Part shown: one piece after another, positions 35,366 through 62,354 of the stretch
Position numbering within the stretch: the stretch's first letter is position 1
Layout of the letters: every line of letters starts with the position of its first letter
Origin: an uncultured Pseudomonadota bacterium
GTDB lineage: Bacteria > Oederibacteriota > Muellerivitia > Muellerivitales > Muellerivitaceae
Direction: 5' to 3'
NCBI GenBank assembly: GCA_963770835.1
Contig: CAVYRH010000016.1
Coordinates: 1-64,000 of the forward strand
DNA: 64,000 nt
Program-made: the position numbers and the translations under genes
The notes under the pieces: generated by a model
Databases searched by the model: none
What the model saw: the letters and a program-made list of their open reading frames with translations, nothing else
What the model was told of the DNA's origin: nothing

Positions 35366-35395
35366 TTGTCCACGACGGGGACCCGTCGTGGACAA
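35366..35395 (+). repeat. 30-bp site, perfect palindrome (TTGTCCACGACGGG-GA-CCCGTCGTGGACAA)
   Basis: 14-bp perfect arms around GA. Confidence 0.95.
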
Positions 35396-35434
35396 AGAAC
35401 AAGTACCAATTTGCAGTCCAATATGGAGGAACCG

Positions 35435-35944
35435 ATGAAGATAAAAGTTTATAAAAAAATATTCGTGATATCTGCAATCCTTTCTTTTGCCCCAATTCTT
35501 GGTTTTTCTGACGACTTCGACCTAAAAGATTCCCATCCAGAAATTCTTAAAGGTAATGTTTATGAAATAAAATCGATGGGGTCCGTCCCTATAGGCCAGG
35601 GAATTTATATCGATATGGTGATTGATCCATCCCAAGAGGAAATAATTCTAAAACGCTTCAAATTTAAGGAGGGGGCAGATTGGGGTGTAGTTTCAAACGA
35701 CTCCAAGGATACGATTCATTTGGATTCGATTAAGAAGGACGGCGATTCAAAGGTGATCATCGTTGGTTCTGAGGCCCAAGACACGGATGGAATTAAGGTT
35801 AAGATCGAATTGTCGGCTTTTGATCAATCTCGAGCCCAATTTACTGAAGCCCTAGTAGATATCATTTGTGATGTTGATCATGGAAGCGGTGATTTAACAT
35901 TATCATTAAAAAAATTGCACCTTCGGGCAATTAAGGTTAAATGA
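35435..35944 (+). CDS. Exported hypothetical protein (cassette-like)
   Basis: GGAGG SD, signal peptide, AT-rich, between two sites. Confidence 0.7.
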   Translation: MKIKVYKKIFVISAILSFAPILGFSDDFDLKDSHPEILKGNVYEIKSMGSVPIGQGIYIDMVIDPSQEEIILKRFKFKEGADWGVVSNDSKDTIHLDSIKKDGDSKVIIVGSEAQDTDGIKVKIELSAFDQSRAQFTEALVDIICDVDHGSGDLTLSLKKLHLRAIKVK

Positions 35945-35970
35945 GAATTTAGGAATTAAAGTTGCGCAGG

Positions 35971-36000
35971 TTGTCCACGACGGGGACCCTTCGTGAACAA
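35971..36000 (+). repeat. 30-bp site (TTGTCCACGACGGGGACCCTTCGTGAACAA)
   Basis: 28/30 to consensus. Confidence 0.92.
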
Positions 36001-36073
36001 CGAAAATAATGGATAATGGTAGTCAGGCACTTTCAGCATAAAGATGGTTTACAAAATTTGGGGGGCAGACCAC

Positions 36074-37084
36074 ATGGACTTGCTTATTGATACTTACGGT
36101 ACCAAGATCGGCGTAAATGGCGAGCGCATCGTCCTTTCTTTTCCGAAAGTTAAAGAGAAAAAAGAATACCCCATCCATAGACTGGAGAAAATAGTCATAC
36201 TGCGGCCGGCCTCGCTCACGACTCACGCGGTTCAGCTCGCGATTGAGCACGATGTTGATATCGTCTATCTCGGTTCTTTTGGCAAGCCCATCGGAAGACT
36301 ATTTTCAAGCGAACCAAAAGGGCTGGCGAGTCTTCGTAAAGCGCAACTGGAAGCGTCAACTTCGCTTGAGCGATCGTTCAAAATCGCGAAAGAATTAGTG
36401 CGGGGCAAATGCGCTAATCAGCTCGATCTACTCCGATATCTCGCGTACCGATATAAAAAGGATGTGGGGACCGAACTCTTACAAGCGCAGACCCTTTTTG
36501 ATGTCTTGGACAATGTCCCGTGTTCGGAGAAAGGCAAGGAGCAACTCCTTGGTACGGAAGGATACATCGCGGACAAATATTTCAGCGGGTTAAAAAAATT
36601 CTATAGATTCCCGGGCCGAAAACCACAAGGCAGGGACCAGTTTAACAGCGTACTGAATTATGGTTACGGCATCCTTTACAATGAAGTCGAACGGGCATGC
36701 CTTTACGTCGGTCTTGATCCATATCTCGGCCTCTACCACAGTGAACGCTATGGTAAGCCTGCCCTCGTTCTCGATCTTGTCGAAGAATTCCGCGTACCAA
36801 TCGTCGACTCGGTGCTTTTCCCGCTTTTCATAGAAAAGAAACTGAGCCAACGGAAATATTTTGAAAAAACCGCGGTTGGGCAATATCTGTTATCGCCTGA
36901 GGGAAAAAGCGTCGTGGTGGGGGCGATCATGAGGCGGTTGAATGAAACGACGGCATGGCGGGAGAAACAATATACTCTTAAGCAGATCATAGATAACCAG
37001 ATTAGGGCGTTGGCACGTCACTTTGTCGAAAAGGAGGACAAGTACAACCCGTTTCGTGCGGAAAAACTTTTTTCGATATCATGA
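36074..37084 (+). CDS. cas1: CRISPR-associated endonuclease Cas1
   Basis: LLGTEG, NSVLNYGYGILY, GLDPYLGLYH, LVLDLVEEFR; catalytic E/H/E present. Confidence 0.95.
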   Translation: MDLLIDTYGTKIGVNGERIVLSFPKVKEKKEYPIHRLEKIVILRPASLTTHAVQLAIEHDVDIVYLGSFGKPIGRLFSSEPKGLASLRKAQLEASTSLERSFKIAKELVRGKCANQLDLLRYLAYRYKKDVGTELLQAQTLFDVLDNVPCSEKGKEQLLGTEGYIADKYFSGLKKFYRFPGRKPQGRDQFNSVLNYGYGILYNEVERACLYVGLDPYLGLYHSERYGKPALVLDLVEEFRVPIVDSVLFPLFIEKKLSQRKYFEKTAVGQYLLSPEGKSVVVGAIMRRLNETTAWREKQYTLKQIIDNQIRALARHFVEKEDKYNPFRAEKLFSIS

Positions 37085-37416
37085 ACAATTTCAATGCCAT
37101 CACCCTAGTATCGTGGGAAACGCGCGACTGGCGGCATCGGGACAAGGCGGTTCTGTGGTGCAAGAATTATGGTCTCAAGCCGGTTTTACGGAATATGTAT
37201 ATCGGAAAATTGTATTCAAAAGAACGGGAAAAACTCGAGAATAAATTCAAGGGGGCTTTCGCAAAGAAGACCGAAAAGTTTTTTATCAGTACGCTCTGTC
37301 GGTCGTGCTTTGAAGATTCGGTTTTCGGTGGTACGCTTAGTTCTAAGAAAGATGATGTCGACATTGAAACTGCGTTTGAACTTATCCAAATCACGCCGAA
37401 TTCGGCGGAACGGTGA
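37081..37416 (+). CDS. cas2: Divergent Cas2-like protein
   Basis: ATGA-coupled to cas1; LVSWE, CKNYGL, YIGKL, LCRSC follow the Cas2 pattern. Confidence 0.75.
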   Translation: MNNFNAITLVSWETRDWRHRDKAVLWCKNYGLKPVLRNMYIGKLYSKEREKLENKFKGAFAKKTEKFFISTLCRSCFEDSVFGGTLSSKKDDVDIETAFELIQITPNSAER

Positions 37417-37438
37417 AAAACACCAATAATTGCAGGCT

Positions 37439-37475
37439 CCTGCACATGCCTGTCGCAAAAAGGATAGTGTGCAAC
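37439..37475 (+). CRISPR. 37-bp CRISPR-like repeat, copy 3 (one variant base), 22 bp after cas2
   Basis: CCTGCACATGCCTGTCGCAAAAAGGATAGTGTGCAAC. Confidence 0.65.
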
Positions 37476-37493
37476 CTCACTAAGGAGGGATCT

Positions 37494-37664
37494 ATGGCAA
37501 AGTTAAAAGAAAAAGAAGCGTCAGAGAAATCGGAAAAGGGAGTCTCGAGGGAAAGCCTGGAAGTGGCGGCTTATTACCACTGGCAGAACCGGGGATGCCC
37601 AAACAATGATGAAATGTGTGATTGGGTGGAGGCGGAAAAGGAATTGGTCGGAGCCTCCAAATAA
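37494..37664 (+). CDS. DUF2934-domain protein
   Basis: AAYYHWQNRG......DWVEAEKEL; TAAGGAGG SD. Confidence 0.8.
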   Translation: MAKLKEKEASEKSEKGVSRESLEVAAYYHWQNRGCPNNDEMCDWVEAEKELVGASK

Positions 37665-37725
37665 GTCTTAAAACAATAATTGACATTAAAATTCTCTAAA
37701 GAGTTGTGCTTCCGGGGAAGTTCAT

Positions 37726-37974
37726 TTGGTCAAGGTTGTATCCTTGAAGCCCCGGAGATTTTATGAGAGGTGGATCATGGTTGACCGTGTGCTTAGAAGG
37801 TACGGGCCTTTTTTAGAAAAATTGTTGTTCTGGGCTCTGGAAGGCGATAAATCACCTTTCGACCGGGACGATTCCCAACGCCAAGAATTGACACGAAAGC
37901 CGGTTCGAAAAATGCTGAAAAAAAATAAGGTCTTGGCTGAGCCAGCTCATTCTCCAATCCGGCAAAAGGCTTAG
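37726..37974 (+). CDS. Hypothetical protein (start uncertain)
   Basis: ORF only; GAGG precedes an internal ATG. Confidence 0.3.
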   Translation: MVKVVSLKPRRFYERWIMVDRVLRRYGPFLEKLLFWALEGDKSPFDRDDSQRQELTRKPVRKMLKKNKVLAEPAHSPIRQKA

Positions 37975-38157
37975 ACTAACAATTGGAAGAGGTTCTTGAT
38001 AGGACGCCGTGAAGGTGCCAGCGGATTTATTGCGATGTGTTAAGAAAAAGAATCCTCTTTCGTTGGAAACCCCGGGATGGGAGTGGATCCTGGGGTTTTT
38101 TTGTTTTTTGATAATCCTTAAGTAGTGTTCACAAGTAAATAAATTGGAGAAAAGAAT

Positions 38158-38772
38158 ATGACACTCATAGAGGAAGCGAAGAAAAGTAAGAAAACGGGCG
38201 CTTCGATCAGCGTTCTCGATGCCATTTGCAACCGAAGGGCCGTCCGCCACTACACGGCCAAGGCGGTTGACGAAAAAACCGTGAGGAGCCTCCTGGAATT
38301 CGCTGTCCAGGCCCCCAGCGCGGTCAACAGCCAGCCCTGGAGCTTCGCCGTCGTCCAGGATGCGGTTCTCCTGCGGGGAATTTCCAATGAGGCTAAAAAG
38401 ACGCTTGCCAAGGATCCCCGCTGGAAGTCCGAGGCCCTGCATGGGCCGAACCGTTTCCTGGACCCGGGATTCAATATTTTCTACGGCGCTTCCACCCTCA
38501 TCATTGTTTGCGCGACTCAGGAAGGACTAGTTCCCGAGGCGGATTGCTACCTAGCCTGCCAAAACCTGATGCTGGCCGCTTATGGAATGGGGCTGGGTAC
38601 CTGCCCCATCGGGCTGGCTTGGGACGTTCTGCGGACCGATTCGATGAAAAATAAATTGGGAATACCGGAAGGGCAATTCCCAGTCCTTCCGATCATCGTC
38701 GGATACCCGTCGGAGGAATCCCCAAGGACGCCGAGAAACCCACCCCGGATTTTAAACTGGATAGGGCCATAA
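38158..38772 (+). CDS. Nitroreductase family protein
   Basis: RRAVRHY, APSAVNSQPWSF, NLMLAAYGMGLGTC. Confidence 0.92.
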   Translation: MTLIEEAKKSKKTGASISVLDAICNRRAVRHYTAKAVDEKTVRSLLEFAVQAPSAVNSQPWSFAVVQDAVLLRGISNEAKKTLAKDPRWKSEALHGPNRFLDPGFNIFYGASTLIIVCATQEGLVPEADCYLACQNLMLAAYGMGLGTCPIGLAWDVLRTDSMKNKLGIPEGQFPVLPIIVGYPSEESPRTPRNPPRILNWIGP

Positions 38773-38867
38773 AGGACGACTCCTCGAATCAAGCCTGAAC
38801 GTCCAAAGGAGGGAATGCACTACAATGCTTCCTGGGCCTATCCGGACTTGAAAGGTTTTGATCCCCC

Positions 38868-39671
38868 ATGGAACCCATGATCGAAGTTCGCGGCCTTACC
38901 AAGAGTTTTAAGGAAGTCCGCGCCGTCCAGGACGTGAGTTTTGACGTTGCTCCGGGGGAATGTTTTGCCCTCCTGGGTCCGAATGGCGCCGGTAAAAGCA
39001 CCACCATCAAGATGCTCATTACCATGATTTCCCCGGATTCCGGCGATGCGAAAGTAAATGGCTTTTCCCTGAAATTAGACCCGGCCCGCATCCGTGAATC
39101 CATCGGTTACGTCCCCCAATCCTTGTCGGTGGACGGCAGCTTGACGGGCTTGGAAAACCTCACGATCTTCGGGAAACTTTACGGCCTGACCAAGGCCCAA
39201 TTAAAAGACCGGGTTCCCCAAATCCTGAAAATGTTGGACCTGACCGAGGCGGCCCACCGGCCAGTGGCTCACTATTCGGGTGGAATGGTGAGGCGGCTTG
39301 AGATCGGCCAATCCATTTTGCACCGTCCTGCGGTGGTGTTTTTGGATGAACCCACTGCGGGACTGGACCCCGTCGCCCGCAACGCCCTCTGGGGGCATAT
39401 CCGGGAACTGCGCAAAGATTACGGGACAACTTTGTTGATGACCACCCATTACATGGAAGAAGCCCAAGAATTATGCGATCGCATCGCCATCATGGATAAG
39501 GGGCGCATCAAGGTAATGGGAACGTTGAAGGAATTGCGCAAGAGGGCCCGCAAACCCCGGGCCACGATGGATGAGCTATTCGTGCATTTCGTGGGGTCGT
39601 CTGAATCTGGCGAGCAAGGAGGCTTGGCCAATGTCAAACGCAGTCGCCGTATCGCCCAAAGACTCGGTTAA
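38868..39671 (+). CDS. ABC exporter ATP-binding protein (DrrA-like)
   Basis: GPNGAGKST, YSGGMVRRLEI, FLDEPT. Confidence 0.92.
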   Translation: MEPMIEVRGLTKSFKEVRAVQDVSFDVAPGECFALLGPNGAGKSTTIKMLITMISPDSGDAKVNGFSLKLDPARIRESIGYVPQSLSVDGSLTGLENLTIFGKLYGLTKAQLKDRVPQILKMLDLTEAAHRPVAHYSGGMVRRLEIGQSILHRPAVVFLDEPTAGLDPVARNALWGHIRELRKDYGTTLLMTTHYMEEAQELCDRIAIMDKGRIKVMGTLKELRKRARKPRATMDELFVHFVGSSESGEQGGLANVKRSRRIAQRLG

Positions 39672-40449
39672 GCGCCGTCGCGGGCCGCTCCTTTACCTTT
39701 ATCATGTCGGCGTCATCATTGAATTGGAAACACTCAAGATGATGAAAGACCCCACCGAGATCCTCTCCCGGAGCATACAGCCCGTGATCTGGATCCTTTT
39801 GTTTGGCGAGGCTTTTAGCCGTATGAAGGCCGTTCCCGAGGCGGGAGGGGATTACCTGGCTTTTCTCACGCCAGGAATATTGGCCCAGTCCATCACTTTC
39901 GTTTCCATCTTCAACGGGTTGTCCATCATTTGGGAAAGGGACATGGGGTTGCTTCAGAAAATCCTTACCACTCCCATCGAGCGTTCCGCCCTGGTCCTGG
40001 GTAAAATGCTGGCCTCCACTTTCCGGTCCCTTTGTCAACTGGGGGTCGTATTGGCGGTCACCCTCTGCTTGGGTATCCATCTGCAATGGAGCCTTGACCG
40101 GGTGGCCGGCCTTTTGGGGTTTGTTGTGCTCGGTTCGGCTTTTTTTTCCGGGCTCTCCATGGTGATCGCGGCCATCGTGAAGACCCGTGACCGCATGATG
40201 GGCATCGGCCAATTGGTGACCATGCCGCTCTTCTTCGCTTCCAGCGCCCTTTATCCCGTTTCCATCATGCCGCCCTGGCTCCAGGTTTTCGCCAAAGCTA
40301 ACCCCTTAAGTTACCTCGTGGACGGCTTGAGGGGGCTCTTGCTGGACCCTTCCTATTCCCATGGGTTGTTGGACGGAATGGTCCTATTGGCCGCATCGCT
40401 CTTCATCTGGGCCCTAGCCACCCGCCAGTACCCCCGGCTTTTGACCTAA
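39631..40449 (+). CDS. ABC-2 type permease (DrrB-like)
   Basis: FLTPGILAQ, PLFFASSALYP, NPLSYLVDGLR. Confidence 0.9.
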   Translation: MSNAVAVSPKDSVKRRRGPLLYLYHVGVIIELETLKMMKDPTEILSRSIQPVIWILLFGEAFSRMKAVPEAGGDYLAFLTPGILAQSITFVSIFNGLSIIWERDMGLLQKILTTPIERSALVLGKMLASTFRSLCQLGVVLAVTLCLGIHLQWSLDRVAGLLGFVVLGSAFFSGLSMVIAAIVKTRDRMMGIGQLVTMPLFFASSALYPVSIMPPWLQVFAKANPLSYLVDGLRGLLLDPSYSHGLLDGMVLLAASLFIWALATRQYPRLLT

Positions 40450-40484
40450 ATTCGAGTCTGGATTGTTGTGAGTTGTTTTTTAGG

Positions 40485-40496
40485 TTGTCCACGACG
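40485..40496 (+). repeat. Left part of a 30-bp site interrupted by the intron
   Basis: TTGTCCACGACG joined to 42438-42455 (GGGAGCCGTGATGGGTAA) rebuilds a 30-bp site. Confidence 0.85.
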
Positions 40497-42437
40497 GTGC
40501 GTCCAGAAAAGGCAGGTGTGTTCAGCAAGAGATAGTCTTGCATGGGTAATAGCCAAAGCCCATTAGCTAGGATGGCAGGCAAGCGGGAAACCAAATGCCT
40601 GAAGCCCATCAACAAAGCCATCGAAAGGATGGTGAGCGAGTCGTCGGGCCGTAACGAAAGTAAATGCACAGGTGGCCCCGAAAACACTTGCCTCGGAGGC
40701 TGAGTCCGCCGTCGTGGGACGAAAGCATCATGGGACAGCGCGGAGAAATGGCTGAAGCGCTGGAACACTCCGACGGGGTGATAGCAACGGCACGAAGACA
40801 AGGACACGCCAAGCAACTGGAGAAACCCTCCTTGCCCCAGGCAGAAATGCTTGGAGAAAGGTAGGCCGTATAACCGTGACGCGGGAAAACGGTCGAAGGT
40901 GAGAGGGTTTAGGATGGGTTCATGGTAGCGATGAAGCGGGGTAATGCCCGTGGAGCGAAGGAACCCTGCTGTTGTTAAGTCCCTCGACAAAACGGAAGGC
41001 AGTGACGGTATGAAAAAGACGTCAATTAACCTGCAAGACCTGAGACGAGAGATATACGTCAAAGCGAAGGCTGAAAAGAACTGGAGTTTCTGGGGACTGT
41101 ACACCCATGTTTGCAAGATGGAAACGCTTCAACAGGCTTACCGAATGGCTAAGGTAAATAACGGAGCCCCTGGAATAGATGGGGTGACGTTTGATGCCAT
41201 TGAGGAGGCCGGAGTGGAGTCGTTTCTGGAAAGCATCCGGGGTGAATTAGTTCAAGGCACGTATAAGCCCGTTCGAAACCGGAAGAAGGAAATACCCAAG
41301 GGAAATGGGAAGGTAAGAGTCCTTGGGATACCCAACATTCGGGATAGAGTAGTCCAGGGAGCACTGAAGTTTATTCTGGAACCGATTTTTGAGGCCGATT
41401 TTCAAGAAGGGTCCTATGGGTATCGACCCAAGCGGACCGCTCATGCGGCTGTGAACAGGGTAGCATCGGCAATCGTCTGTAGAAAAACCCGAGTCATTGA
41501 TGTAGACCTCAAGGCATATTTCGACACGGTAAGGCACGACCTTCTGATGAAGAAAGTTGCCCGAAGGGTTGAGGATGAAACGGTGTTGAGATTGTTGAGG
41601 ATGATCCTGAAGGCCAGCGGCAAAAGAGGAGTCCCGCAGGGAGGGGTTATTTCCCCTCTTCTGGCTAATCTCTACCTCAACGAGGTGGATAAGATGCTGG
41701 AAAAGGCAAAAGAAGTGACTCGGCAAGGGAAGAACAACTATATCGAATATGCGAGGTTCGCTGACGATATGGTGATCCTTGTTAATGGATATCCGCAATG
41801 GGAATGGTTGGCAAAGGCTGCCTACCGAAGGTTACTTGAAGAATTGACCAAGCTCGACTTGCAAATCAACACGGACAAGACGCGGATAGCAGACTTAACG
41901 AAAGGTGAAAGTTTCGGGTTTCTGGGGTTTGACTTTCGACAGGTGAAAACCCGTCGAGGGAAATGGGGGGTGAAGTTCACGCCGAAAATGAAGGCGCGAG
42001 CAACACTTCTGGGTAAGCTCAAGGAAACATTTGGAAGCTTCCAATCTCAGCCGGTGCAGAGGGTGATTGAGATTATCAATCCCAAACTGCGTGGGTGGGT
42101 GAATTACTTTCGGATAGGGAATTCTAGGCGCTGTTTTAACTACGTGGAAAGATGGGTCGAGAATAAAATCAGACGGCATATGATGCGTGCGAAGAAGCTC
42201 GACGGTTTTGGGCGGGATAGGTGGAGTAGGGAGTGGATATATAAGTATCTGGGGTTGTACAGAAGCTACCAAATACGATATTACCAAGAACCGAAAGCGC
42301 TACCCGTCTGATAGGTCACATAAACTTTGACAGGAAAGCAACAGGTGAGCGTAGTGCGGGAAATCCGCACGCTACGTTCGAGGAGGCGGGGACTGGAAAC
42401 GGAGCCAGAAGGCCACCGCACCAGTCCTCGACCCTAC
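40497..42437 (+). mobile_element. Group II intron, apparently full length
   Basis: 5' GTGCG, domain V GAGCGTAGTGCGGGAAATCCGCACGCTACGTTC (42347-42379), domain VI ending CCCTAC, RT ORF inside. Confidence 0.93.
41010..42311 (+). CDS. ltrA: Group II intron reverse transcriptase/maturase without endonuclease domain
   Basis: GAPGIDG, RVLGIP, GVPQGGVISPLLANLYL, RFADD, LRGWVNYF. Confidence 0.95.
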   Translation: MKKTSINLQDLRREIYVKAKAEKNWSFWGLYTHVCKMETLQQAYRMAKVNNGAPGIDGVTFDAIEEAGVESFLESIRGELVQGTYKPVRNRKKEIPKGNGKVRVLGIPNIRDRVVQGALKFILEPIFEADFQEGSYGYRPKRTAHAAVNRVASAIVCRKTRVIDVDLKAYFDTVRHDLLMKKVARRVEDETVLRLLRMILKASGKRGVPQGGVISPLLANLYLNEVDKMLEKAKEVTRQGKNNYIEYARFADDMVILVNGYPQWEWLAKAAYRRLLEELTKLDLQINTDKTRIADLTKGESFGFLGFDFRQVKTRRGKWGVKFTPKMKARATLLGKLKETFGSFQSQPVQRVIEIINPKLRGWVNYFRIGNSRRCFNYVERWVENKIRRHMMRAKKLDGFGRDRWSREWIYKYLGLYRSYQIRYYQEPKALPV

Positions 42438-42470
42438 GGGAGCCGTGATGGGTAAGTAAAAGCTGAAATT

Positions 42471-43212: not shown

Positions 43213-44907
43213 ATGAAAACAAGTTGCCATGCCGGAAAACCTGCGGAACCATGGATGTTGGTCGATGTTTCGAGGTTGATAACTGCTTACTTTACCGATG
43301 AACCCGATCCCAGCGCACCCGAGCAACGGATAATGTTTGGAACCTCAGGCCACCGTGGGTCATCCCTCCATAAGTCTTTTAATGAAAATCATATTCTTTC
43401 CATTACCCAGGCTATCTGCCACTATCGGAAGCTACAAAGAACTGATGGTCCTTTGTTTCTTGGAATAGATACCCATGCTTTGTCTATTCCTGCTAGCGCA
43501 AATGCCCTTGAGGTGTTGGCGGCAAATGGGGTTGATGTGATGATCGCGGAAGGGGACAAATATACCCCTACCCCGGTGATTTCCCATTCAATCCTGGCCT
43601 ACAACCGTGGAAGGAAAACCGGATTAGCCGATGGAATCGTTGTCACACCGTCTCATAATCCGCCGGAGGATGGTGGTTTCAAATACAACCCGCCCAATGG
43701 TGGTCCGGCGGACACGGTTGCCACCGATTGGATTGAAAAGGCAGCCAATGATTTCCTGGAATCCAGCCTGGAAGGGGTGAAGCGGGTTCCTCTTTCAAAG
43801 GCGCATAAGGCTTCCACAACCCACCGGCACGACTATATCAGTCCCTACATCACTGACCTAAACAGCGTTGTTGATATGCAGGCTATCCAAGACGCGAGAC
43901 TCAGGTTGGGGGTTGATCCCCTTGGGGGCGCTGGCGTTCATTATTGGGGAAGAATCGCAGAACGTTATGGTTTGAAACTTACGGTGGTCAACGATGAGGT
44001 TGACCCGACCTTCCGGTTTATGACAGTGGATTGGGATGGCCGTATACGAATGGATCCTTCTTCGTCTTTCGCAATGCAACGGTTAATGGGAATGAAGGAT
44101 CTTTTTGACATTTCTTTCGCTTGCGATACCGACCATGACCGGCATGGTATCGTCACCCCAACCGCTGGATTGTTACCCCCAAACCATTACCTTTCCGCAG
44201 CTATCCACTATCTTTTCCAACACCGGCCAAAGTGGGGCAAGGAGGCATCTGTCGGCAAAACGGTGGTTAGTAGCGGGATGATCGACCGTGTCACGACGAA
44301 GCTTGGCCGGAAACTATTCGAAGTGCCGGTCGGGTTTAAGTGGTTTGTTGATGGTTTGCTCGACGGTTCACTTGGCTTTGGAGGTGAGGAGAGCGCGGGA
44401 GCTTCCTTTTCCCGCATGGATGGTACCGTTTGGACCACGGATAAAGACGGGATTGTCCCGGCATTATTGGCGGCGGAGATCACCGCCGTAACGGGCCGTG
44501 ATCCCGGGGAGTTGTATCACGATCTTACCCAGGAATTTGGCGATCCCGTTTATGACCGCCTTGAGGCTCCGGCGACCCCGGAGCAAAAGACGACACTGAA
44601 AAAACTTTCGACCCAACAAATAAAACATACCGAACTGGCCGGTGAAAAAATCCAAACCATTCTCACGCATGCGCCGGGCAACGGAGCCCCCATTGGCGGG
44701 TTGAAGGTAGGGACCGAAAGCGGATGGTTCGCTGCCCGTCCATCGGGGACGGAGGATATCTACAAGATATACGCTGAGAGTTTCAGGGACCATTCCCATT
44801 TGGGCCGAATTCTCGAGGAAGCACGGGAAATCGTCGCTGATGCCTTAGCCGCATCCCCTCCTGTGCAAGGGAAGCCTTCAAGTCCAAAACAGAAAGTGAA
44901 AAGATGA
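43213..44907 (+). CDS. pgm: Phosphoglucomutase
   Basis: [28 protein letters not shown]. Confidence 0.96.
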
Positions 44908-47447
44908 CCGACAAAACAATCTTTAAACATCCGATTTACAGTTTGCCCATCGCTGAAATCGAGGGGTTCGGCTCACTTGCTGAACTCGCCCTGGATATGC
45001 GTTGGTCTTGGAATCATGCCACTGACGATATTTGGCGAAATCTAGACCCAGTACTGTGGGACCTAACCCATCACCCATGTGATGTCCTTCAAACGGTCTC
45101 CCGGGAAAAGATCAAGGGAATGCTTTCTGATCCCGCTTTTCGGAAAAAGATAGATGCCCTTGTGCAGTCCAAAAAGGAGGCGGAGGAAGCGCCAGCGTGG
45201 TACCAGCAACACCATCCCAAATCTCCCCTTAGCTGTGTGGCATATTTCAGTATGGAATTCATGTTGAGTGAAGCCCTCCCAATCTACTCGGGAGGACTTG
45301 GAAATGTGGCCGGTGATCAGCTCAAAGCGGCAAGCGATCTGGGGGTTCCTGTGGTCGGGGTGGGACTTCTGTATCAGCAGGGGTATTTTCGCCAGGTGAT
45401 CGACAAGGATGGGGCTCAACAGGCCATCTATCCTTACAACGATCCCGGCCAGTTGCCCATTATTCCCTTGCGCCACCCGAACGGAGAATGGTTGCGCCTG
45501 GAAATTCCCTTGCCCGGTTACTCGGTCTGGTTGCGCGCCTGGCAGGTTAAGGTAGGCCGTGTCAAACTTTACCTGTTGGACAGCAACGATGTGGCCAATT
45601 TCCCGGCCCATCGGGGGATCACCAGCGAGCTTTATGGCGGCGGCCAGGAGTTGCGGTTGAAACAAGAGATGGTACTTGGGTTAGGCGGGTGGAGGTTGCT
45701 CCGTGCGCTGGGCCTCCAGCCGGAAGTCTGTCACCTCAATGAAGGCCACGCGGCCTTCGCCGTATTGGAACGCGCACGGGATTTCATGGAGGAATCAGGA
45801 CAGCCTTTTGAAGCGGCCCTGGCCGTTACCCGGGCAGGCAACCTGTTCACGACTCACACGGCAGTAGTCGCCGGATTCGACCGTTTTAATCCTGCCCTCG
45901 TCGAACAATACCTTAGTGGATACGCACAGAAGCTAGGTATCTCCCTCCGCGACCTGTTGGCGCTCGGACGCCAAAACCCGGATGACCAAACCGAGAGTTT
46001 TAACATGGCTTACTTGGCCATTCGTGGCAGCGGGGCGGTAAATGGCGTAAGCCTCTTGCATGGACGGGTGAGTCGTCATCTCTTCGAGCCCCTCTTTTTA
46101 CACTGGCCGACAGCGGAAGTGCCCGTTAGCCATGTCACCAACGGAGTCCATATGCCGACCTGGGATTCGGCCCAGGCAGATGACCTTTGGACGAAAGCCT
46201 GCGGAAAAGACCGGTGGCTGAATCCGACTGAAAACATGGAGAAGGATATTCGCGGGGTTTCCGACGCCGCCATTTGGCAATTCCGTACCGACGCTAGCAA
46301 GGCCCTGGTCGAATACGCCCGAAAACGCTTTCCTCTTCAACTCGCCTCATCAGGCGCGTCGCCAGATGAGGTTGAAGGGGCAAAACATATGTTTAATCCA
46401 AATGCGTTGACTTTGGGTTTCGCGCGCCGCTTCGCCACTTACAAAAGGCCAAATATGCTGCTGCACGATCCGGACCGGCTGATTCGCCTTTTAACCAATC
46501 CACAAAGGCCGGTGCAACTCATCCTTGCTGGTAAGGCTCACCCGGCAGACCAAGCAGGACAAGACCTGATTAAAGAATGGTCTCGTTTCATCAAACGGCC
46601 CGATGTGCGCCCCCACGTGATTTTCTTGAGCGACTACAACATGCTACTGAGTGAATACCTTGTGCAAGGGGTTGATGTCTGGATCAACACGCCACGGCGG
46701 CCGTGGGAGGCCTGTGGAACGAGCGGAATGAAGGTACTCGTTAATGGCGGGCTCAATCTCTCCGAATTGGACGGCTGGTGGTCAGAAGCTTACGCTCCGG
46801 AGGTTGGTTGGGCGTTGGGAGATGGCCGGGAACACGGCGACGATCCAGCGTGGGACGCGGTTGAAGCCGAGGCGCTTTATGCCCTGCTCGAAAGGGAAGT
46901 AATACCGGAATTTTACACGCGTGATAAAAACGGTGTTCCAACTGCCTGGGTTAAAAGGATGCGGGAGAGCATGGCGCGCCTGACCCCTCTCTTTTCCTCC
47001 AACCGATCGGTCCGTGAATATACCGAGAAACATTATCTTCCGAGAGCGGAAGCCTACCATTCACGCTCGGCGAACAAGGGCGCGATCGGCAAACAAATGG
47101 TCGATTGGGGGCATCAATTTGAACAGAAGTGGCCCGCGATTCGATTCGGAGAAGTAAAGGTTGAGACGCATGGTGGCCACCATCAATTTGAAGTTCAGGT
47201 CTATCTCAATGACTTGGAACCGAACGTGATCAAAGTGGAACTTTACGCGGACGGGGTCAAAGATGGTTCCCCCATCATGCAGGAGTTGAAGCAACTTCGC
47301 CAACTGGCCGGGGTGCCGGGCGGTTTTGTTTTTGGCGCGGCGGTTTCGGCGACCCGCCCGGCAGTGGACTATACGGCACGGGTGATACCGCATTTCGACG
47401 GGATTTCAATCCCATTGGAAGAAGCCCATATCCTTTGGAAGAATTGA
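44904..47447 (+). CDS. glgP: Alpha-glucan phosphorylase
   Basis: [26 protein letters not shown]. Confidence 0.95.
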
Positions 47448-47553
47448 TTGGATTTTGAAAGAAAAAAATGATTGAAAAACAGAATATAAAAGCTAACTCC
47501 AACTCGATACTGCCATTTGGCAAGCAGAAATCAATTTGGGGAGGGGGCACCAA

Positions 47554-49173
47554 ATGAACCAAAGATCCTCCGGGATTCTTCTCCACCCAACATCCCTTTA
47601 TAACCCCTATTCCATTGGCGACTTGGGGCCTGCCGCGACCGCCTTTGTCGATTTCCTGGTCGAGAGCGGACAGCGTTGGTGGCAGATGCTTCCGATCGGG
47701 CCAGTTGGGTGGGGGAATTCACCCTACCAATCAACCTCCGCTTTTGCGGGTAATCCTCTCCTGTTAAGCCCAGATCGGTTAATGGAGCAGGGATTTTTGG
47801 ACGGCCAAAATATTGAATTTTCTCCTTTGGATGACCTTGGGAAGGTTGATTATCCCGTGGCTGAACACTTGAAGCTGGGATGGCTAAAAAATGCATTCGA
47901 GCATTTCAAATGGAACATGAACTCCGAAAAACCATCGCAGTTCGACGCATTTGTGGAGATGGAATCCTTTTGGGTTGAGGATTTTTCATTGTTTTCCGCG
48001 ATCGGGGAGAAAGAGGGCACTACGGATTGGACTCGATGGGGCCCAGGACTTCGAAAACGCAGTCCCGAGACCATCCTTCGCGCGAAAAAGGACTTTACGG
48101 ATGAAATTCTTTATCACAAGTTTGTGCAATGGCAGTTCGCAATTCAATGGAAAGAGTTACGTTCTTACTGCTTATCCAAAGGCATCGGATTGATCGGCGA
48201 TATTCCCCTTTTCGTGGGGCATCAAAGTGCCGATGTCTGGGCCCATCCCGAGCTTTTTAAACTGGATGTCGATGGAAAACCCACCGTTGTTGCGGGCGTT
48301 CCGCCCGATTATTTCTCGAAAACAGGGCAGGTGTGGGGTGTCCCCGTTTACGACTGGAGTGCGCTTCGAAAGCAGAATTACAGATGGTGGATCGAACGCC
48401 TGCGGAAGGCTTTTGGACGATTCGACCTCAATCGGTTGGATCATTTCATCGGTTTTGTCCGAACTTATGAAGTGCCTGCTCGTGCCAAGACGGCCGAGGA
48501 AGGGCAATACCAACCAGGTGGAGGGGCATCTTTTTTAAAAGCCGTCACCGAAGCTCTGGGCTGTTTGCCCTTGATCGCAGAGGATCTTGGGATCATCACC
48601 CCGGAAGTGGCCGCTTTACGGGATCAGTTCCATCTTCCGGGCATTCGAGTACTCCAATTTGATCTAGAACCAAGAACCGAAACCCATCCAGGTCCACCGG
48701 AACAACGTCCGGTGAAATGGATGGTTTATACGGGAACGCATGACAACGACACAACGCTGGGTTGGTACGGGAAGTTGACGGTATCCCAGCAGGAGGCCCT
48801 TCGAAAACAACTGGGAGTGAACGACCAGGGGGTTGTCTGGGCCGTGATAGGGGAGGCTTTTGCCTCCGAAGCCGAAGCCGCCATCATTCCGATGCAAGAC
48901 CTCATGGAGTTGGGGTCCGAGGGACGGATGAATTTTCCCGGGATCGCGGAAGGTAACTGGGGATGGCGACTGAAGGAGGGAGTGTTGACACGGCAGCTAG
49001 CGCAGAAGCTGAAAAAGCTGACTACCACCTATGGGCGCCTCAGCAGTCCTGTAGCCCTTCGAAAACCCAGGGGTCTGGAAGGGAACCCGACCCAACAGAT
49101 TGGGAAACGGGCTAGTGATTATTCAAAACTAAACACCGCCAGTAAAACAACGGAAGCCCTGGGACCCTTATGA
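47554..49173 (+). CDS. malQ: 4-alpha-glucanotransferase
   Basis: SGILLHPTSL, GVPPDYFS, RLDHFIG, IAEDLG, YTGTHDNDT. Confidence 0.95.
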   Translation: MNQRSSGILLHPTSLYNPYSIGDLGPAATAFVDFLVESGQRWWQMLPIGPVGWGNSPYQSTSAFAGNPLLLSPDRLMEQGFLDGQNIEFSPLDDLGKVDYPVAEHLKLGWLKNAFEHFKWNMNSEKPSQFDAFVEMESFWVEDFSLFSAIGEKEGTTDWTRWGPGLRKRSPETILRAKKDFTDEILYHKFVQWQFAIQWKELRSYCLSKGIGLIGDIPLFVGHQSADVWAHPELFKLDVDGKPTVVAGVPPDYFSKTGQVWGVPVYDWSALRKQNYRWWIERLRKAFGRFDLNRLDHFIGFVRTYEVPARAKTAEEGQYQPGGGASFLKAVTEALGCLPLIAEDLGIITPEVAALRDQFHLPGIRVLQFDLEPRTETHPGPPEQRPVKWMVYTGTHDNDTTLGWYGKLTVSQQEALRKQLGVNDQGVVWAVIGEAFASEAEAAIIPMQDLMELGSEGRMNFPGIAEGNWGWRLKEGVLTRQLAQKLKKLTTTYGRLSSPVALRKPRGLEGNPTQQIGKRASDYSKLNTASKTTEALGPL

Positions 49174-49817
49174 ACCGCTCGACAAAAGTCACGACTTTAT
49201 TCCTGGATATCGGTGGTGTCCTCCTCACCGACGGGTGGGACCGTCATGCCCGAAAGCGGGCGGCGATGAATTTCAAGCTGGAGCACGCCGATCTGGAGGA
49301 GCGCCATCACCTGACCTTCGACGCCTTCGAGGAAGGAAAACTTTCATTCAAAGAATACCTAAGCCGGGTGGTTTTCCACCAAAAACGGCCTTTTACCCGG
49401 GCCCAGTTCCGGGATTTCATGTTCGCCCAATCGAAGCCTTATCCGGAGATGATCGGGTTTGTCGCGGGCCTCAAGGCCAGGTACGGGCTTAGGGTTGCCG
49501 TGGTCAGCAACGAAGCACGGGAATTAAACGCATATCGGATACGAAAATTCAGGCTCGATACTTTCGTTGATTCATTTATTACCTCCTGCTTTGTGCATGT
49601 CCGCAAACCCGACGCGGATATCTTCCGGTTCGCCCTGGATATCGCCAATGCCCCAGCCCGGCAGGTTATCTATATCGAAAATACGCCGATGTTTGTCCGT
49701 GTCGCTGAAGGCCTGGGGATTCGGAGCATTCTTCATAAGGACGCAAAATCCACGCGGGCGAAGTTGGCTGCGTTAGGGTTGCGGAATCAGGAAGGAGTCG
49801 CCGATGAATCCTTCTGA
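49170..49817 (+). CDS. HAD-family hydrolase
   Basis: FLDIGGVL, VSNE, RKPDADIF. Confidence 0.88.
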   Translation: MNRSTKVTTLFLDIGGVLLTDGWDRHARKRAAMNFKLEHADLEERHHLTFDAFEEGKLSFKEYLSRVVFHQKRPFTRAQFRDFMFAQSKPYPEMIGFVAGLKARYGLRVAVVSNEARELNAYRIRKFRLDTFVDSFITSCFVHVRKPDADIFRFALDIANAPARQVIYIENTPMFVRVAEGLGIRSILHKDAKSTRAKLAALGLRNQEGVADESF

Positions 49818-50997
49818 ACCCCGCATTCTGACGATCAATGGCGGCTCCTCAAGTATCAAGTTTGACTTATTCGAGATCGGCGACCCCTTGCTCCGGATCC
49901 TGGCGGGAAAGATTGACCGGATTGGATTACCGGATGCCACCTTGCGGGTCAAGGGACCGGCTCCTTTGGATAATTTTTCACGACCAGTTAAAGTGCCCGA
50001 TCACAAGTCGGCGGTAGGTGTATTGATGGATTGGATAGGGGAACGTGGCGGCCGTGATGCCTTGGCGGCAGTAGGACACCGGGTGGTTCATGGAGGGCCG
50101 AATTATAGCGATCCGAAAATAATCACAAGAGAAATGATCGATGAGTTACGGCTACTCAAGACATTTGATCCTGAACACCTACCGGAAGAGATCATGCTGA
50201 TCGAGGCTTTTCATCACCAGTTTCCCGACTTGCCCCAAGTGGCCTGTTTCGACACGGCTTTCCATAAAAAATTGCCGCGCGTGGCCCAGTTGTTGCCGAT
50301 TCCGCGCCGGTACGAAGCAAAGGGGGTACGCCGGTACGGATTTCACGGGTTGTCATATTCGTACCTCATGGGGGAGTTGACCCGCTTGGCCGGGGCGGAG
50401 GCGGCTCAAGGACGGATCATACTTGCCCACCTTGGCAATGGCGCGAGTCTGGCGGCGGTCTGGAAAGGAAATTCCCTGGACACAAGTATGAGTTTTACAC
50501 CCGCAGCCGGAGTGCCGATGGGTACACGTTCCGGGGATATTGATCCCGGATTGTTTGGTTACCTGGCGCGCGAAGAGGGAATTGACGCCAAGGGATTCAA
50601 CGAAATGCTTAATTTCAAATCTGGACTCATAGGGGTATCAGAAACCAGTTCGGATATGAGTGATTTGTTGAAAAGTGAAACGACAGACCCACGGGCGGCG
50701 GAGGCTGTAACATTATTTTGCTACCAAGTCAAAAAATGGATCGGCGCTTTTGCGGCGGCTTTAGGCGGACTGGACACGTTGGTATTCTCAGCCGGTATCG
50801 GCGAAAACGCGCCCACGGTCCGTGGCCGGATTTGCGATGGATTGGAATTCCTTGGAATAGAGCTCGAGGAAAAACGGAACTCGGCGAACGAGGGAGTGAT
50901 ATCCAAAGACAAAGGCAGGGTTAGCGTCCGTGTCATTCGCACGGACGAGGAATTCATGATCGCCAAGATGGTTTGCCGCCTTCTCGACATCGGCTGA
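49804..50997 (+). CDS. ackA: Acetate/propionate kinase
   Basis: [30 protein letters not shown]. Confidence 0.93.
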
Positions 50998-51013
50998 AAA
51001 AGGAGGATTTAAA

Positions 51014-53383
51014 ATGGGGACCGAAACACTTTCACCTGAACTGCTCCGCAAAATGGATGGCTATTGGCGTGCCGCGAACTATCTGTCGGTCGGCCAAATA
51101 TACCTTTATGACAATCCGTTGCTGAAGGAACCTTTGAAGCTGTCCCACGTGAAGCCCTTGGTGGTCGGGCATTGGGGTACGACTCCCGGCCAGAACTTTA
51201 TTTATGTTCACCTGAACCGGGTCATCAAGAAGTATGACCTGGATATGTTCTATATCGCCGGTCCCGGTCATGGAGGTCCGGCCCTGGTCGCAAATACTTA
51301 CCTGGAAGGAACCTATAGTGAGATTTATTCCAATATCAGCCAAAACGAGGAGGGCTTAAAAAAACTTTTCACACAATTTTCCTTCCCCGGTGGGATCTCC
51401 AGCCATGTTGCACCCACGACACCTGGGTCGATCCATGAGGGGGGCGAGTTGGGGTACTCGCTCAGCCATGCCTTCGGGGCCGCCTTCGATAATCCAGGCC
51501 TGATAGTTGCCTGTGTTATCGGGGATGGCGAGGCAGAAACCGGACCGTTGGCGACCGCTTGGCAGTCCAACAAATTCCTCAACCCTATTTCCGATGGGGC
51601 CGTCTTGCCAATTCTTCATCTCAACGGTTACAAGATCTCCAACCCGACCGTTCTGGCCCGGATCGAGCCGGAAGAATTAGAGCAATTTTTCAGGGGTTGT
51701 GGCTGGAAGCCCTATTTTGTGGAGGGAGATGACCCGGAAAAGATGCATCAACTTATGGCGGCTACCCTCGAACAAGCCGTCGAGGAAATCCGGCAGATCC
51801 AAAATAACGCGCGGGGCAATAACGATACCACCCGGCCCCGCTGGCCGATGATCGTCCTCAGGTCGCCAAAGGGGTGGACGGGGCCGAAGACCGTGGATGG
51901 CCTCCAAGTGGAGGGCACGTTCCGGGCGCACCAGGTTCCGCTCCTGGTGGATTTTGAGCATCCCGATCATATCCATGAATTAGAAAGCTGGATGAAGAGC
52001 TATAAGCCCGAAGAACTTTTCGACAAGAACGGCGGTCTCATTCCGGAATTGGCGGAACTGGCGCCCAAAGGCAACCGGCGGATGGGAGCCAATCCCCACG
52101 CCAACGGGGGGTTACTGCTTCGCGACCTGAGGATGCCGGATTTCCGCGTCCATGCCGTGAAGGTGCCGTCACCCGGTGCCGTTAATGGACAGGATACGAT
52201 GGTTCTGGGAAAGTTTCTTCGGGATGTGGCAAAGATGAATAAGGATCAAAACAATTTCCGTATCTTTGGCCCCGATGAAACCCTCTCGAATCTTCTTGGC
52301 GCGGTTTTTGAGGAAACCAACCGCCAGTGGGATGCCCGAACTGAAAAGAACGATGAATTTCTCGCGCCAGCCGGGCGGGTACTGGACTCGATGCTGAGCG
52401 AGCACCAGTCGGAGGGCTGGCTGGAGGGTTACCTCCTCACGGGGCGGCACGGGCTTTTCAATTGTTACGAGGCCTTCATCCACATCATTGATTCGATGTT
52501 CAACCAGCACGCCAAGTGGCTGAAGATCACCGCTGAATTGCCCTGGCGGAGGAAGATCGCGTCCCTGAACTACCTGTTGGCTTCCCACGTCTGGCAACAG
52601 GATCACAACGGGTTCACTCACCAGGACCCCGGCTTCCTCGACCATGTGGTGAACAAGAAGGCCGATATCGTCCGCATATACCTTCCGCCCGACGCCAATT
52701 GCCTCCTTTCGGTTTTTGACCACTGCCTGCGAAGCCGTCACTATGTGAATGTGGTGGTCGCGGGGAAACACGCGCTTCCCCAATGGCTGGACATGGACGC
52801 TGCGGAAAAGCACTGCACGGAAGGGATCGGTATCTGGCAATGGGCCAGCAACGACCAGGGTGCCGAGCCCGACGTGGTCATGGCCTGCTGTGGGGACACA
52901 CCCACGTTGGAGATCCTCGCCGCCGTTTCCATCCTTCATGAGCATTTGCCCGAATTGAGAATCCGGATGATCAATGTGGTCGATCTGATGAGATTGCAGC
53001 CGCAAACCGAGCACCCACATGGGCTGAACGACACGAATTTCGATTCACTTTTCACGAAAGACAAACCCGTTGTCTTCGCCTTCCATGGCTATCCCTGGCT
53101 AATCCACCGTCTGACCTACCGCAGGACCAACCGAAATATCCACGTCCGGGGCTATGTGGAAGAAGGCGCGATCACAACGGCTTTTGACATGAGGGTGTTG
53201 AACAAATTGGACCGGTTCCACCTGGTACAAGACGTGGTGGACCGCCTGCCGCAATTGGGAACGAGAGGGGCCTACATCAAGCAGATGGTTAAGGACAAGC
53301 TCGTCGAGCACAAGCTTTACATCGATAAACAAGGTCAAGACATGCCGGAAATCCGCAACTGGAAGTGGAGCGTCACTCGATGA
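51014..53383 (+). CDS. xfp: Phosphoketolase
   Basis: [35 protein letters not shown]. Confidence 0.95.
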
Positions 53384-54408
53384 ACAACCAAGAATTGATG
53401 GATGCTGTGAGGTCGCTGGTCGCGGGGGACAAGGGCCTATTGGCGATGGATGAAAGCAACACGACTTGCAACGAGCGATTCGCCAAGTTGGATATTCCAC
53501 AGACCGAGGATGCCCGGCGCGCTTATCGGGAGTTGATCATTACGACTCCCGGCCTTTCGGATTCCATCAGCGGAGCTATCCTCTATGACGAGACTATCCG
53601 CCAGAAAACGAAAGACGGAATCCCCTTCGTAAAGGCCCTCACCGATTTGGGAATCATACCCGGTATCAAAGTGGATACGGGAGCGAAGGAGTTGGCAGGC
53701 CATCCGGGAGAGCGTGTCACCGAGGGACTGGATGGTTTGCGGGGACGCTTGGCCTATTATTCCCAATTGGGCGCCCGATTCGCCAAGTGGCGCGCCGTCA
53801 TAGCCCTGGGCGACGGACTGCCCAGTTTGGGTTGCGTCGAGGCGAACGCACATGCTTTGGCCCGTTACGCCGCCCTGTGCCAGGAAGTCGGATTGGTCCC
53901 CATTGTGGAGGCGGAGGTTCTGATGGATGGGGCGCATGACCTTCAGCGTTGTTTCGAAGTGACCGAGGAAACACTCCGGACGGTTTTTATCCAGCTTCAC
54001 GCCCAACGAGTCATGCTGGAGGGCATGATCCTGAAGCCCAACATGGTACTTCCGGGATGGGCCTGTTCCCGGCAGGAATCGGTAGAAGAAGTGGCCGACG
54101 CGACGGTGGGGTGTCTTTTGCGGTCCGTTCCCGCCGCCGTTCCCGGAATTGCCTTCTTGTCGGGGGGACAATCCGCCGAATTGGCCTCGGAGCGTTTGAA
54201 CGCCATGAACGTACGGTTTAAATCCCGGTTGCCTTGGGCTTTGTCCTTTTCCTTCGCCCGGGCCATCCAGCAACCCGCATTGGAGATTTGGATGGGCGAG
54301 GAAGCCCATGTGGCGACCGCGCAGAAAGCCCTGTTTCACCGGGCCACGTGCAATCGGGCCGCAAGACAGGGCAAATACAACGCTGATATGGAAAGAGCAA
54401 AAGTATGA
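53380..54408 (+). CDS. Class I fructose-bisphosphate aldolase
   Basis: [28 protein letters not shown]. Confidence 0.93.
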
Positions 54409-54446
54409 CGACAAACATACCCCCACCCGCGAAACCTGCGGTATAG

Positions 54447-56431
<1,985 letters not shown>

Positions 56432-56439
<8 letters not shown>

Positions 56440-56761
56440 AAAACCTGAAGCCGGGAACGGGAAAGATCCGACAGGGTTCAGTCGTGAGGTTGGCGAGAAG
56501 GCGGAACGCAAGATCAAGGCCCAACGGAATCCCGTCAAGGGCGTCTGGTTTGGATTGGGCATGATGGGGCTTATTGGCTGGTCGGTGGTAGTTCCGACCC
56601 TGCTCGGCGCGGCACTTGGTATATGGTTGGACAAACGGCATCCGGGCGGCCATTCCTGGACGTTGGCCCTCATGGCGGCGGGACTGGCGATTGGATGCAT
56701 GAACGCCTGGCATTGGGTGGCCCAACAGGACAAGGAAATGGGGGAGGACCAAAATGACTGA
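56432..56761 (+). CDS. AtpZ/AtpQ family protein
   Basis: GLGMMGLIGWSVVVP, GIWLD. Confidence 0.85.
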
Positions 56762-57071
56762 TCTTTTAAAAATGGGGATGGTTTTGGCGGTTGGGGTCCT
56801 GATAGGCGGAATATTCTTTGGCGGCCTCTGGTGGACGATCCAGAAAGGGGCTTCGATCAAACGGCCAGCCTTATGGTTCCTCGGCAGCTTGTTGTTACGG
56901 ATGGGGATCACCTTGGGTGGCTTCTATTTCATCGCGCACGGACATTGGGAGAGGTTTCTTGTATGTTTGCTGGGATTTTTAATTGGCCGATATATCGTGA
57001 CTCGGCTTACCGGTGGGGTGGAAAAACCGAAAATCCTGGCACAGGGGGTCGGCGATGCGCCTTACTCCTGA
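56754..57071 (+). CDS. atpR: N-ATPase AtpR subunit
   Basis: FFGGLWWT, SLLLR. Confidence 0.85.
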   Translation: MTDLLKMGMVLAVGVLIGGIFFGGLWWTIQKGASIKRPALWFLGSLLLRMGITLGGFYFIAHGHWERFLVCLLGFLIGRYIVTRLTGGVEKPKILAQGVGDAPYS

Positions 57072-57852
57072 TGAGATGATCTTTTGGCATCATGGTTTTC
57101 TCAAACTCAATGGAACCATTGTTTTCACTTGGGGGCTCATGTTCGTCCTGACGGTGGGTTCCAAGATCCTCACCCATAAACTATCGACCGGGTCGGACCG
57201 TTCCCGATGGCAAAACCTGCTTGAAATTCTCGTCACCGCCATTGAGAAGCAAATCCAAGAGGTGGGTTTGAGCCGGCCCGAGAAATATATCGGCTTCCTT
57301 GGCACCCTTTTTCTTTTTGTCGCCTCAGCCAGCCTTTGCACGGTCATTCCCGGCTACGAGCCGCCCACCGGATCTCTCTCGACCACTGCCGCGCTCGCCT
57401 TGTGCGTGTTCGTGGCCGTGCCCTTCTTCGGAATCGAGGATCAAGGGTTGGGAAACTACCTCAAGTCCTACATGAAGCCCACCTTCATCATGCTGCCTTT
57501 CAACATCATCAGCGAACTTTCGCGTACATTGGCCCTGGCCGTCCGTTTGTTCGGCAACATGATGAGCGGGGCGATGATCATCGCCATCCTGCTCACCATC
57601 ACGCCGTTTGTTTTCCCGATCATAATGATGGTCCTCGGCCTGCTCACCGGCATGGTTCAGGCCTATATTTTCAGCATCCTGGCCGGTGTTTATATCGCGG
57701 CGGCCACAAGGGTTCGAAAACCCAAGCCTGAAACGGATTCAAAACCGGAAGGCAAGGGTGGGGCGAAGTCTGGCGTACAAGTCGATCCTAAGCCTGGGGC
57801 CGAACCAGAAAAGGAGGCTACAGCCAATTCTTTGCCAGTTTTGAATCATTGA
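57055..57852 (+). CDS. atpB: ATPase subunit a
   Basis: LAVRLFGN, VQAYIF. Confidence 0.93.
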   Translation: MRLTPDEMIFWHHGFLKLNGTIVFTWGLMFVLTVGSKILTHKLSTGSDRSRWQNLLEILVTAIEKQIQEVGLSRPEKYIGFLGTLFLFVASASLCTVIPGYEPPTGSLSTTAALALCVFVAVPFFGIEDQGLGNYLKSYMKPTFIMLPFNIISELSRTLALAVRLFGNMMSGAMIIAILLTITPFVFPIIMMVLGLLTGMVQAYIFSILAGVYIAAATRVRKPKPETDSKPEGKGGAKSGVQVDPKPGAEPEKEATANSLPVLNH

Positions 57853-57882
57853 AGAAAAAATATAAAAATAAAAGGAGGAATT

Positions 57883-58164: not shown

Positions 58165-58168
58165 GCTC

Positions 58169-62331: not shown

Positions 62332-62354
62332 AGAAAAAACGGAAGGGGTTTTAA

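Follow-up and report, generated by a model that had tools for sequence, protein, structure and literature searches.

A group II intron likely homing into cassette junctions, the probable crossover sites of a shortened serine recombinase

The group II intron described here (intron A) carries EBS1 and EBS2 sequences that match the left arm of a 30-bp site standing at the junctions of gene cassettes and, on the strength of that match, likely retrohomes there; these junctions are in turn likely to be where a shortened serine recombinase makes its crossovers. We give this reading, which draws on comparative sequence analysis, a probability of roughly 0.6. The intron lies in a stretch of 64,000 nucleotides (the window: positions 1-64000 of contig C16 of genome G000, which comes from an uncultured soil bacterium); the intron parts, the sites, the two cassettes and the segment upstream of the occupied site are on the + strand. 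The intron's habit is a variation on a known way of living in cassette recombination sites; the larger interest is the cassette system that it marks.

Intron A is complete, 1,941 nt long (40497–42437), and was recognized from its ends, an Rfam match and further copies in the genome. It begins with GTGCG at 40497 and finishes with CCCTAC at 42437, and removing it restores a member of the site family, as an earlier note based on the window sequence had proposed. Excision joins a 5' exon made of site bases 1–12 (40485–40496, where IBS2 is bases 1–4 and IBS1 is bases 7–12) to a 3' exon made of bases 13–30 (42438–42455), which holds the GA core and a decayed right arm and belongs to the last of a row of three sites. 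The right arm of the rebuilt site is off consensus at 5 of 14 bases and, because the occupied site is a variant, an exact search of the window with the rebuilt 30-mer gave no match within three mismatches.

The features by which group II retroelements are recognized are present: GUGYG...AY ends, an AGC triad in domain V (42346–42380 by folding, with a 5-nt terminal loop) and a bulged A at 42431 in domain VI (42382–42437, also by folding). A segment of domain I (40523–40659) matches Rfam group-II-D1D4-4 at 121 bits (cut-off 49), and domain IV houses a reverse transcriptase (RT)/maturase ORF of 433 aa with an FADD motif (41010–42311; TIGR04416, 378 bits, cut-off 300). Pfam matches to this protein are RVT_1 and GIIM only, with no endonuclease domain. 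Without its ORF the intron measures about 640 nt. Excerpts of PMC3753933 give a 5-nt domain V loop and an ORF-less length of 450–700 nt as RNA marks of class E/F (IIE/IIF) introns, and the RNA of intron A shows both. Judged by eye, the RT looks unlike one printed class E protein; its nearest plasmid relatives are 63–65% identical. A scan for promoters and terminators around the intron returned hits at chance level. Judged on its sequence, intron A is an intact group II intron.

Twelve copies of intron A are present in the genome, 11 of them identical and one with a 1-nt insertion, and this near-identity is an indirect pointer to activity. Ten lie between bases 12 and 13 of the 30-bp site (12|13), all on the top strand, that is, in cassette sense. 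These ten occupy at least eight distinct loci: eight distinct 5' flanks are readable, two of the copies form a duplicated pair, and a contig end truncates one flank. The remaining two copies are inside an insertion sequence of which the genome holds nine copies; because two of the nine are occupied, targeting is not exclusive to the site. A flank of the insertion-sequence type was also found in a soil run from another study. Among relatives with the same EBS1 in other genomes and metagenomes, seven of the ten different 5' flanks show insertion at 12|13 of the site, and the other three comprise a fragment at the site core (L295), a copy behind another intron copy, and one off-site insertion (L293). 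The claim that the intron exploits the conserved arm of the site is thus borne out by 10 of 12 genomic copies and 7 of 10 flanks of same-EBS1 relatives at the same base.

The L295 fragment (G043:C3, about 168479-169972) comprises intron nt 2–1497 and sits at the site core rather than at 12|13, flanked by the left half of a site plus GA and by the right half; it may be DNA captured at a recombinase cut. At another locus (L314, G014:C7) two ORF-less relatives of intron A stand in tandem, the second directly 3' of the first. Four soil DNA runs, searched as assembled contigs (which cannot show absence), contained no intron-less and no cassette-skipping joint at the window sites. On long contigs the G-rich strand is the top strand of 44 of 55 sites, but the skews are small and the sites clustered, so that GC skew gives only a hint of insertion into the lagging-strand template.

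Target recognition was analysed by covariation across domain I in a non-redundant set of 52 introns; these came from 80 metagenome loci, five family loci and the window, limited to loci with a readable 5' end. The EBS1 hairpin spans 40704–40720, its stem formed by 40704–40707 with 40717–40720. Within it, 40710–40715 pairs at all six positions with exon bases −1 to −6, and for each of these bases the partner is the top covarying column (Watson-Crick fractions, in turn, 0.85, 0.88, 0.88, 0.98, 0.87 and 0.73). The earlier note had correctly taken the loop at 40710 to be EBS1, and had given it eight bases, 40710–40717. That 8-mer is present in the hairpin and complementary to the exon end; covariation, though, is confined to 40710–40715, and exon −7 and −8 have no covarying partner at 40716–40717 in the 52 introns. 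An 8-nt EBS1 was accordingly ruled out, 40717 being part of the hairpin stem. In shuffled versions of the first 420 intron bases (5,000 shuffles) an 8-nt complement to the exon end arises by chance in 0.4% of cases and a 6-nt complement in 4.8%. EBS1 is therefore 6 nt long, and a second element, which the note had overlooked, reads site bases 1–4: EBS2 at 40684–40687, whose positions are the top columns for exon −9 to −12 (Watson-Crick fractions 0.69, 0.81, 0.83 and 0.75). EBS2 is ACAC here, pairing at three of four positions with the site, and ACAA in most relatives; the ACAA of same-EBS1 relatives pairs at all four. EBS3, which the note had proposed to confirm by folding, does not match the site: the column at 40781 covaries with exon +1 across the family (0.79 of 42), yet the A it holds here does not pair with the +1 G of the site and does pair with the +1 T of the insertion-sequence target.

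Taken over EBS1, EBS2 and EBS3, pairing amounts to 6/6, 3/4 and 0/1 at the site against 5/6, 4/4 and 1/1 at the insertion sequence, or 9/11 against 10/11 in total. Sites on the top strand with full EBS1 and at least 3/4 EBS2 pairing are occupied in 9 of 62 cases, and such positions elsewhere in 0 of 99 (p=1.3e-4). Since none of the 99 equally paired positions is used, the pattern is not accounted for by pairing alone; contacts made by the protein could be sufficient, and so could selection against insertion into genes. The difference between top-strand sites (9/62) and bottom-strand sites (0/25) is not significant (p=0.055).

The same counts bear on the possibility that intron A is an ordinary EBS-guided generalist, its on-site excess arising from the abundance of intergenic sites and the purging of gene insertions by selection. 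Such an intron would be expected to enter the insertion sequence at a rate no lower than the sites, as it does; the EBS3 mismatch, the off-site L293 and the many different targets of close relatives also fit. A generalist sits less easily with the retention of the same EBS1 down to about 82–84% nucleotide identity, with most such relatives at 12|13, or with the better fit of the relatives' EBS2 to the site, and the 0 of 99 counts against it too, though there selection could give the same result. We consider this alternative unlikely while taking it seriously.

Phylogeny places the likely retrohoming into the site within a wider repertoire. In a tree of 68 RT sequences the five RTs that target the site fall into a single clade (support 0.999), nested within a set of relatives whose loops and targets are different; target labels came from a rough pattern that left 22 of the 68 rows unlabelled, and L293 is absent from the tree. 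Most other members (30 rows, labelled by the same rough pattern) sit in domain V of other introns. These include a large sister group (L153–L230, about 70–75% RT identity) inserted at the 3' base of other introns' domain V, whose EBS1 and EBS2 match their targets. Descent of intron A from domain-V-targeting introns was considered and is unsupported, such introns being mostly the sister group and the nearest relatives having mixed targets. More distant homologues have unrelated flanks, but also different EBS loops, and this combination supports the pairing model rather than refuting it. The expectation that homologues would share exon flanks held for same-EBS1 relatives, which are mostly on-site, and failed for distant ones, which lie elsewhere.

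The consensus of the site is a perfect 14-GA-14 palindrome, present in 98 copies in G000 (counted in the genome sequence with introns removed), in agreement with the earlier view that the sites are abundant. Of 30 other family genomes, 27 contain the pattern, as does the one sister-family genome, and none of the 67 genomes of the phylum from outside the order does; a reversed control pattern had no match in any genome; genomes carrying the site are mostly labelled candidate division FCPU426. Four unoccupied copies in the window (798–827; 35366–35395, a perfect consensus palindrome; 35971–36000; 62302–62331) share the same eight bases before 12|13, as had been noticed, and two further unoccupied sites had gone unlisted (21011–21040, with IBS1 at 5/6, and 63835–63864, with a variant right arm). 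Two single-gene cassettes lie exactly between neighbouring sites: 35396–35970 (575 bp, 38% GC) and 62332–63834 (1,503 bp). The segment upstream of the occupied site (36001–40484) encodes cas1, a cas2-like ORF, a 37-bp repeat, a nitroreductase and an ABC transporter, and on contig C15 another site is followed by a further copy of its first 1,475 bp.

Two features of the window's gene content were noted in passing. The arrangement of cas1 and a cas2-like ORF followed by the 37-bp CRISPR-like repeat occurs at 36044–37475, 21525 and 29111 and in 27 copies across G000 (mostly on C3 and C15); the repeats share one orientation and stand 0.25–12 kb apart, not about 35 bp, and the whole module is itself carried as a cassette behind the 30-bp site. 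Behind the occupied site, 43213–61916 holds co-oriented genes for phosphoglucomutase, glycogen phosphorylase, glucanotransferase, acetate kinase, phosphoketolase, aldolase and an N-type ATPase operon. This block is closed by the site at 62302 and may be a 20-kb cassette or island.

Array statistics were gathered from the window's own genome plus 90 fetched regions, using adjacent site pairs less than 7.5 kb apart. Orientation is common to 322 of 331 pairs, the median spacing is 799 bp and GC content is 46%. Short cassettes contain a same-strand ORF in 218 of 229 cases, ending a median of 18 bp ahead of the next site, and cargo comprises PIN/VapB, PemK, TacA-GNAT and HigBA-type pairs, GNATs, hydrolases and many unknowns. 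Identical cassettes (861, 961 and 764 bp), bounded exactly by sites, recur in rows of different order. Comparison of these sequences gives good support to the view that the sites are junctions of co-oriented, mostly single-gene cassettes that are exchanged as shuffled arrays.

If cassettes are exchanged at the sites, then the two halves of a site should travel with their own flanks. Exchange was mapped over 527 non-redundant sites, flanks beginning with IS110 or with forward copies of a second intron (intron B, below) being left out. The 22 pairs of sites with only the downstream flank in common differ at bases 1–12 (with one difference at 20), while the 17 with only the upstream flank in common differ at 17–30 (some also at 6 or 11; two cross-locus pairs differ at 11, and three pairs share a reversed intron B as flank). 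Six of the 39 pairs break the pattern, and its limits are set by one informative pair at base 12 and one at 17–18. As half-site differences stop at 12 and resume at 17, exchange falls within bases 13–16; these are nearly invariant (the core is GA in 504 of 527), so the crossover cannot be narrowed to GA.

A candidate for the enzyme is the sole PF00239 match in G000, a 275-aa protein at C17:12078-12905. It belongs to a monophyletic group (support 1.0) of 19 database proteins of 275–283 aa and 68–100% identity that carry PF00239 and PF07508 only, with invariant RVSS and DRLYR columns. All 19 end ahead of the position of the zinc ribbon, which is absent, whereas their next relatives (at most 59% identity) mostly continue into it or have scattered lengths. 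The fold is closest to the SPbeta, Bxb1 and phiC31 integrases, and an AlphaFold model (mean pLDDT 78, pTM 0.49) bears out the two domains, though not the way they are arranged. dN/dS is 0.08–0.16 in seven of ten pairs (three are saturated), which points to purifying selection on the clade. A site faces the gene at every one of the ten loci whose 3' end is visible, lying 8 to about 35 bp past the stop codon (one of these sites is split by intron A, and in several genomes the site has a distinctive right arm), whereas the 18 loci examined for full-length relatives, two of them overlapping, have none within about 1.5 kb. Five 5'-truncated or frameshifted remnants of the gene (L371, L372, L373, L376 and L377) are still joined to a site, which in four cases has the same distinctive right arm.

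Sites and the short recombinase clade are both restricted to one family or order among 99 genomes. The gene itself was found in 7 of 31 family genomes (five full-length, two fragments) and not in the site-rich G002, G012, G018, G023 and G041. It backs onto ardC/radC-type genes and could for that reason be cargo; together with its patchy occurrence this suggests a mobile source of the enzyme that works in trans, or perhaps nothing more than cargo. According to excerpts of PMC11722253, large serine integrases cleave at the centre of the site with a 2-nt overhang, and their zinc-ribbon domain sets attP apart from attB and bears the coiled coil that controls direction. By analogy, a symmetric 14-2-14 site is what a truncated recombinase would need. 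The short serine recombinase is the likely, though still candidate, enzyme that moves the cassettes, and the cassette system is probably serine-driven.

A tyrosine recombinase might move the cassettes instead (for example the Xer-like protein at C11:156053), reading the site as 11-8-11 or 12-6-12, with the short serine enzyme as cargo. PF00589 proteins, unlike the short enzyme, are present in 31 of 31 family genomes; the exchange interval 13–16 would fall inside such a spacer too, and in G000 one tyrosine paralogue starts about 800 bp behind a site on C26. The sites themselves fit this reading poorly: of 527, 407 have a consensus 8-bp spacer and 431 a consensus 6-bp spacer, compared with 504 that have the consensus 2-bp core, and recombined pairs differ at bases 12 and 17–19. 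Across 30 tyrosine-recombinase loci no site was found within about 1.5 kb. On this balance a tyrosine enzyme is distinctly improbable. The C26 paralogue is one of six (360–370 aa), and the AT-rich stretch between it and the site (C26:881466-882280) contains about ten short GGTAG-type motifs. That the palindrome is a regulator's operator or a REP-like repeat, as its strong symmetry and position tens of bases upstream of start codons might suggest, is scarcely credible, given an asymmetric core that follows the direction of the genes in 322 of 331 pairs, identical cassettes that start and stop exactly at sites in different neighbourhoods, and – largely refuting it – half-sites that travel with their own flanks.

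Under the serine-recombinase reading, the enzyme, consisting of the catalytic and first DNA-binding domains only, would bind each 14-bp arm and cut at the central GA, excising or inserting cassettes between like sites without attP/attB asymmetry, and could act in trans on distant arrays. Intron A would gain about 100 intergenic landing places. Because it separates the left arm from the core, an entered junction should be inactivated, locking two cassettes together, while splicing would restore the transcript.

Intron A shares the site with other elements. A second intron lineage (intron B) comes in RT-bearing forms and in ORF-less forms of 800 nt; of its 20 5' ends in G000, 16 are at the 3' edge of a recognizable site, four of these at sites that also hold intron A. 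Its ends are non-canonical, with two or three extra bases before GTGCC and CTCTGC as the finish of most forms. The lineage occurs at C11:109926-110725 and 19 other places in G000 and also at L233 and L234; its ORF-less form spreads as identical copies, and in G043 intron B also occurs on the opposite strand. Intron B had been considered as a class C intron or an IS200 element, and neither reading was kept: it has an EBS loop of its own and is of the D1D4-4 type. An IS110-family element of 1,369 bp is found in G000 at C3:45329-46697, C3:81922-83290, C3:103116 and C8:165073, and four of its five copies lie flush against a site end, on either strand. Judging from these positions, intron B and IS110 would leave the site nearly whole.

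Group II introns that live in cassette recombination sites are known from the IIC-attC introns, S.ma.I2 and its relatives (excerpts of PMC4424553 and PMC3001079), and like them intron A inhabits such sites and has no endonuclease domain. IIC introns are, however, described as being without EBS2 (excerpts of PMC3753933), while intron A has EBS2 and a 6-nt EBS1; and IIC-attC introns lie opposite to the cassettes (excerpts of PMC7923331), while all ten on-site copies of intron A are in cassette sense and in a non-attC target. Because of its EBS2, sense orientation and non-attC target, intron A is not a member of the IIC-attC group. The analogy with attC drawn in the earlier note did not hold: the target is something other than attC, and the intron recognizes it through ordinary EBS1/EBS2 pairing, not in the hairpin-based manner of IIC-attC introns. 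Also comparable are the IIB introns beside attC, UHB.I2 and H.ha.F1/F2 (excerpts of PMC7923331), which like intron A are non-IIC, within a cassette array and in cassette orientation. As excerpted there, these are single or truncated cases, and UHB.I2 lies after attC with poorly conserved exons, in contrast to a whole clade inside a non-attC site at one base.

The arrays invite comparison with integrons and CALINs. Both have rows of co-oriented, low-GC, mostly single-gene cassettes (toxin-antitoxin pairs, GNATs, unknowns), the same reshuffling, arrays distant from the enzyme, and parasitism by introns and IS110. Integron attC sites are long and variable, with a GTTRRRY core; the 30-bp site here is a fixed, near-perfect palindrome without that core. 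The enzyme of integrons is IntI, whereas the candidate here is a serine recombinase facing the array tail; a search of the 31 genomes with TIGR02249, run without a working positive control, gave no IntI match over cut-off. Large serine recombinases (the SPbeta, Bxb1 and phiC31 integrases and CcrA/B) have the same catalytic and recombinase domains, and differ in the zinc ribbon and coiled coil that the short enzyme lacks and in that the site here is symmetric and only 30 bp. Among the titles and abstract openings of the openly accessible literature we found no account of serine-recombinase cassette arrays or of introns homing there.

A bolder reading, to which we give slightly better than even odds, is that FCPU426 harbours a serine integron, in which cassettes in their hundreds are shuffled at symmetric 30-bp sites by a natural recombinase of 275 aa, a cut-down version of a phage-type integrase, and which would be old and abundant enough for two group II intron lineages and an IS110 element to have specialized on it independently, one of them freezing the junctions it enters. 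If true, nature would have supplied a loxP-like serine recombinase that is compact and works in both directions, and with it a natural test of whether direction is imposed by the zinc ribbon and coiled coil alone, as one model has it; tools that seek IntI and attC would miss these arrays. Intron A would show that the habit of an attC parasite can be reached through plain EBS retargeting by a non-IIC lineage, and would offer a natural case of how selfish elements slow cassette shuffling. Integron-style gene collecting would then have evolved a second time, from unrelated parts.
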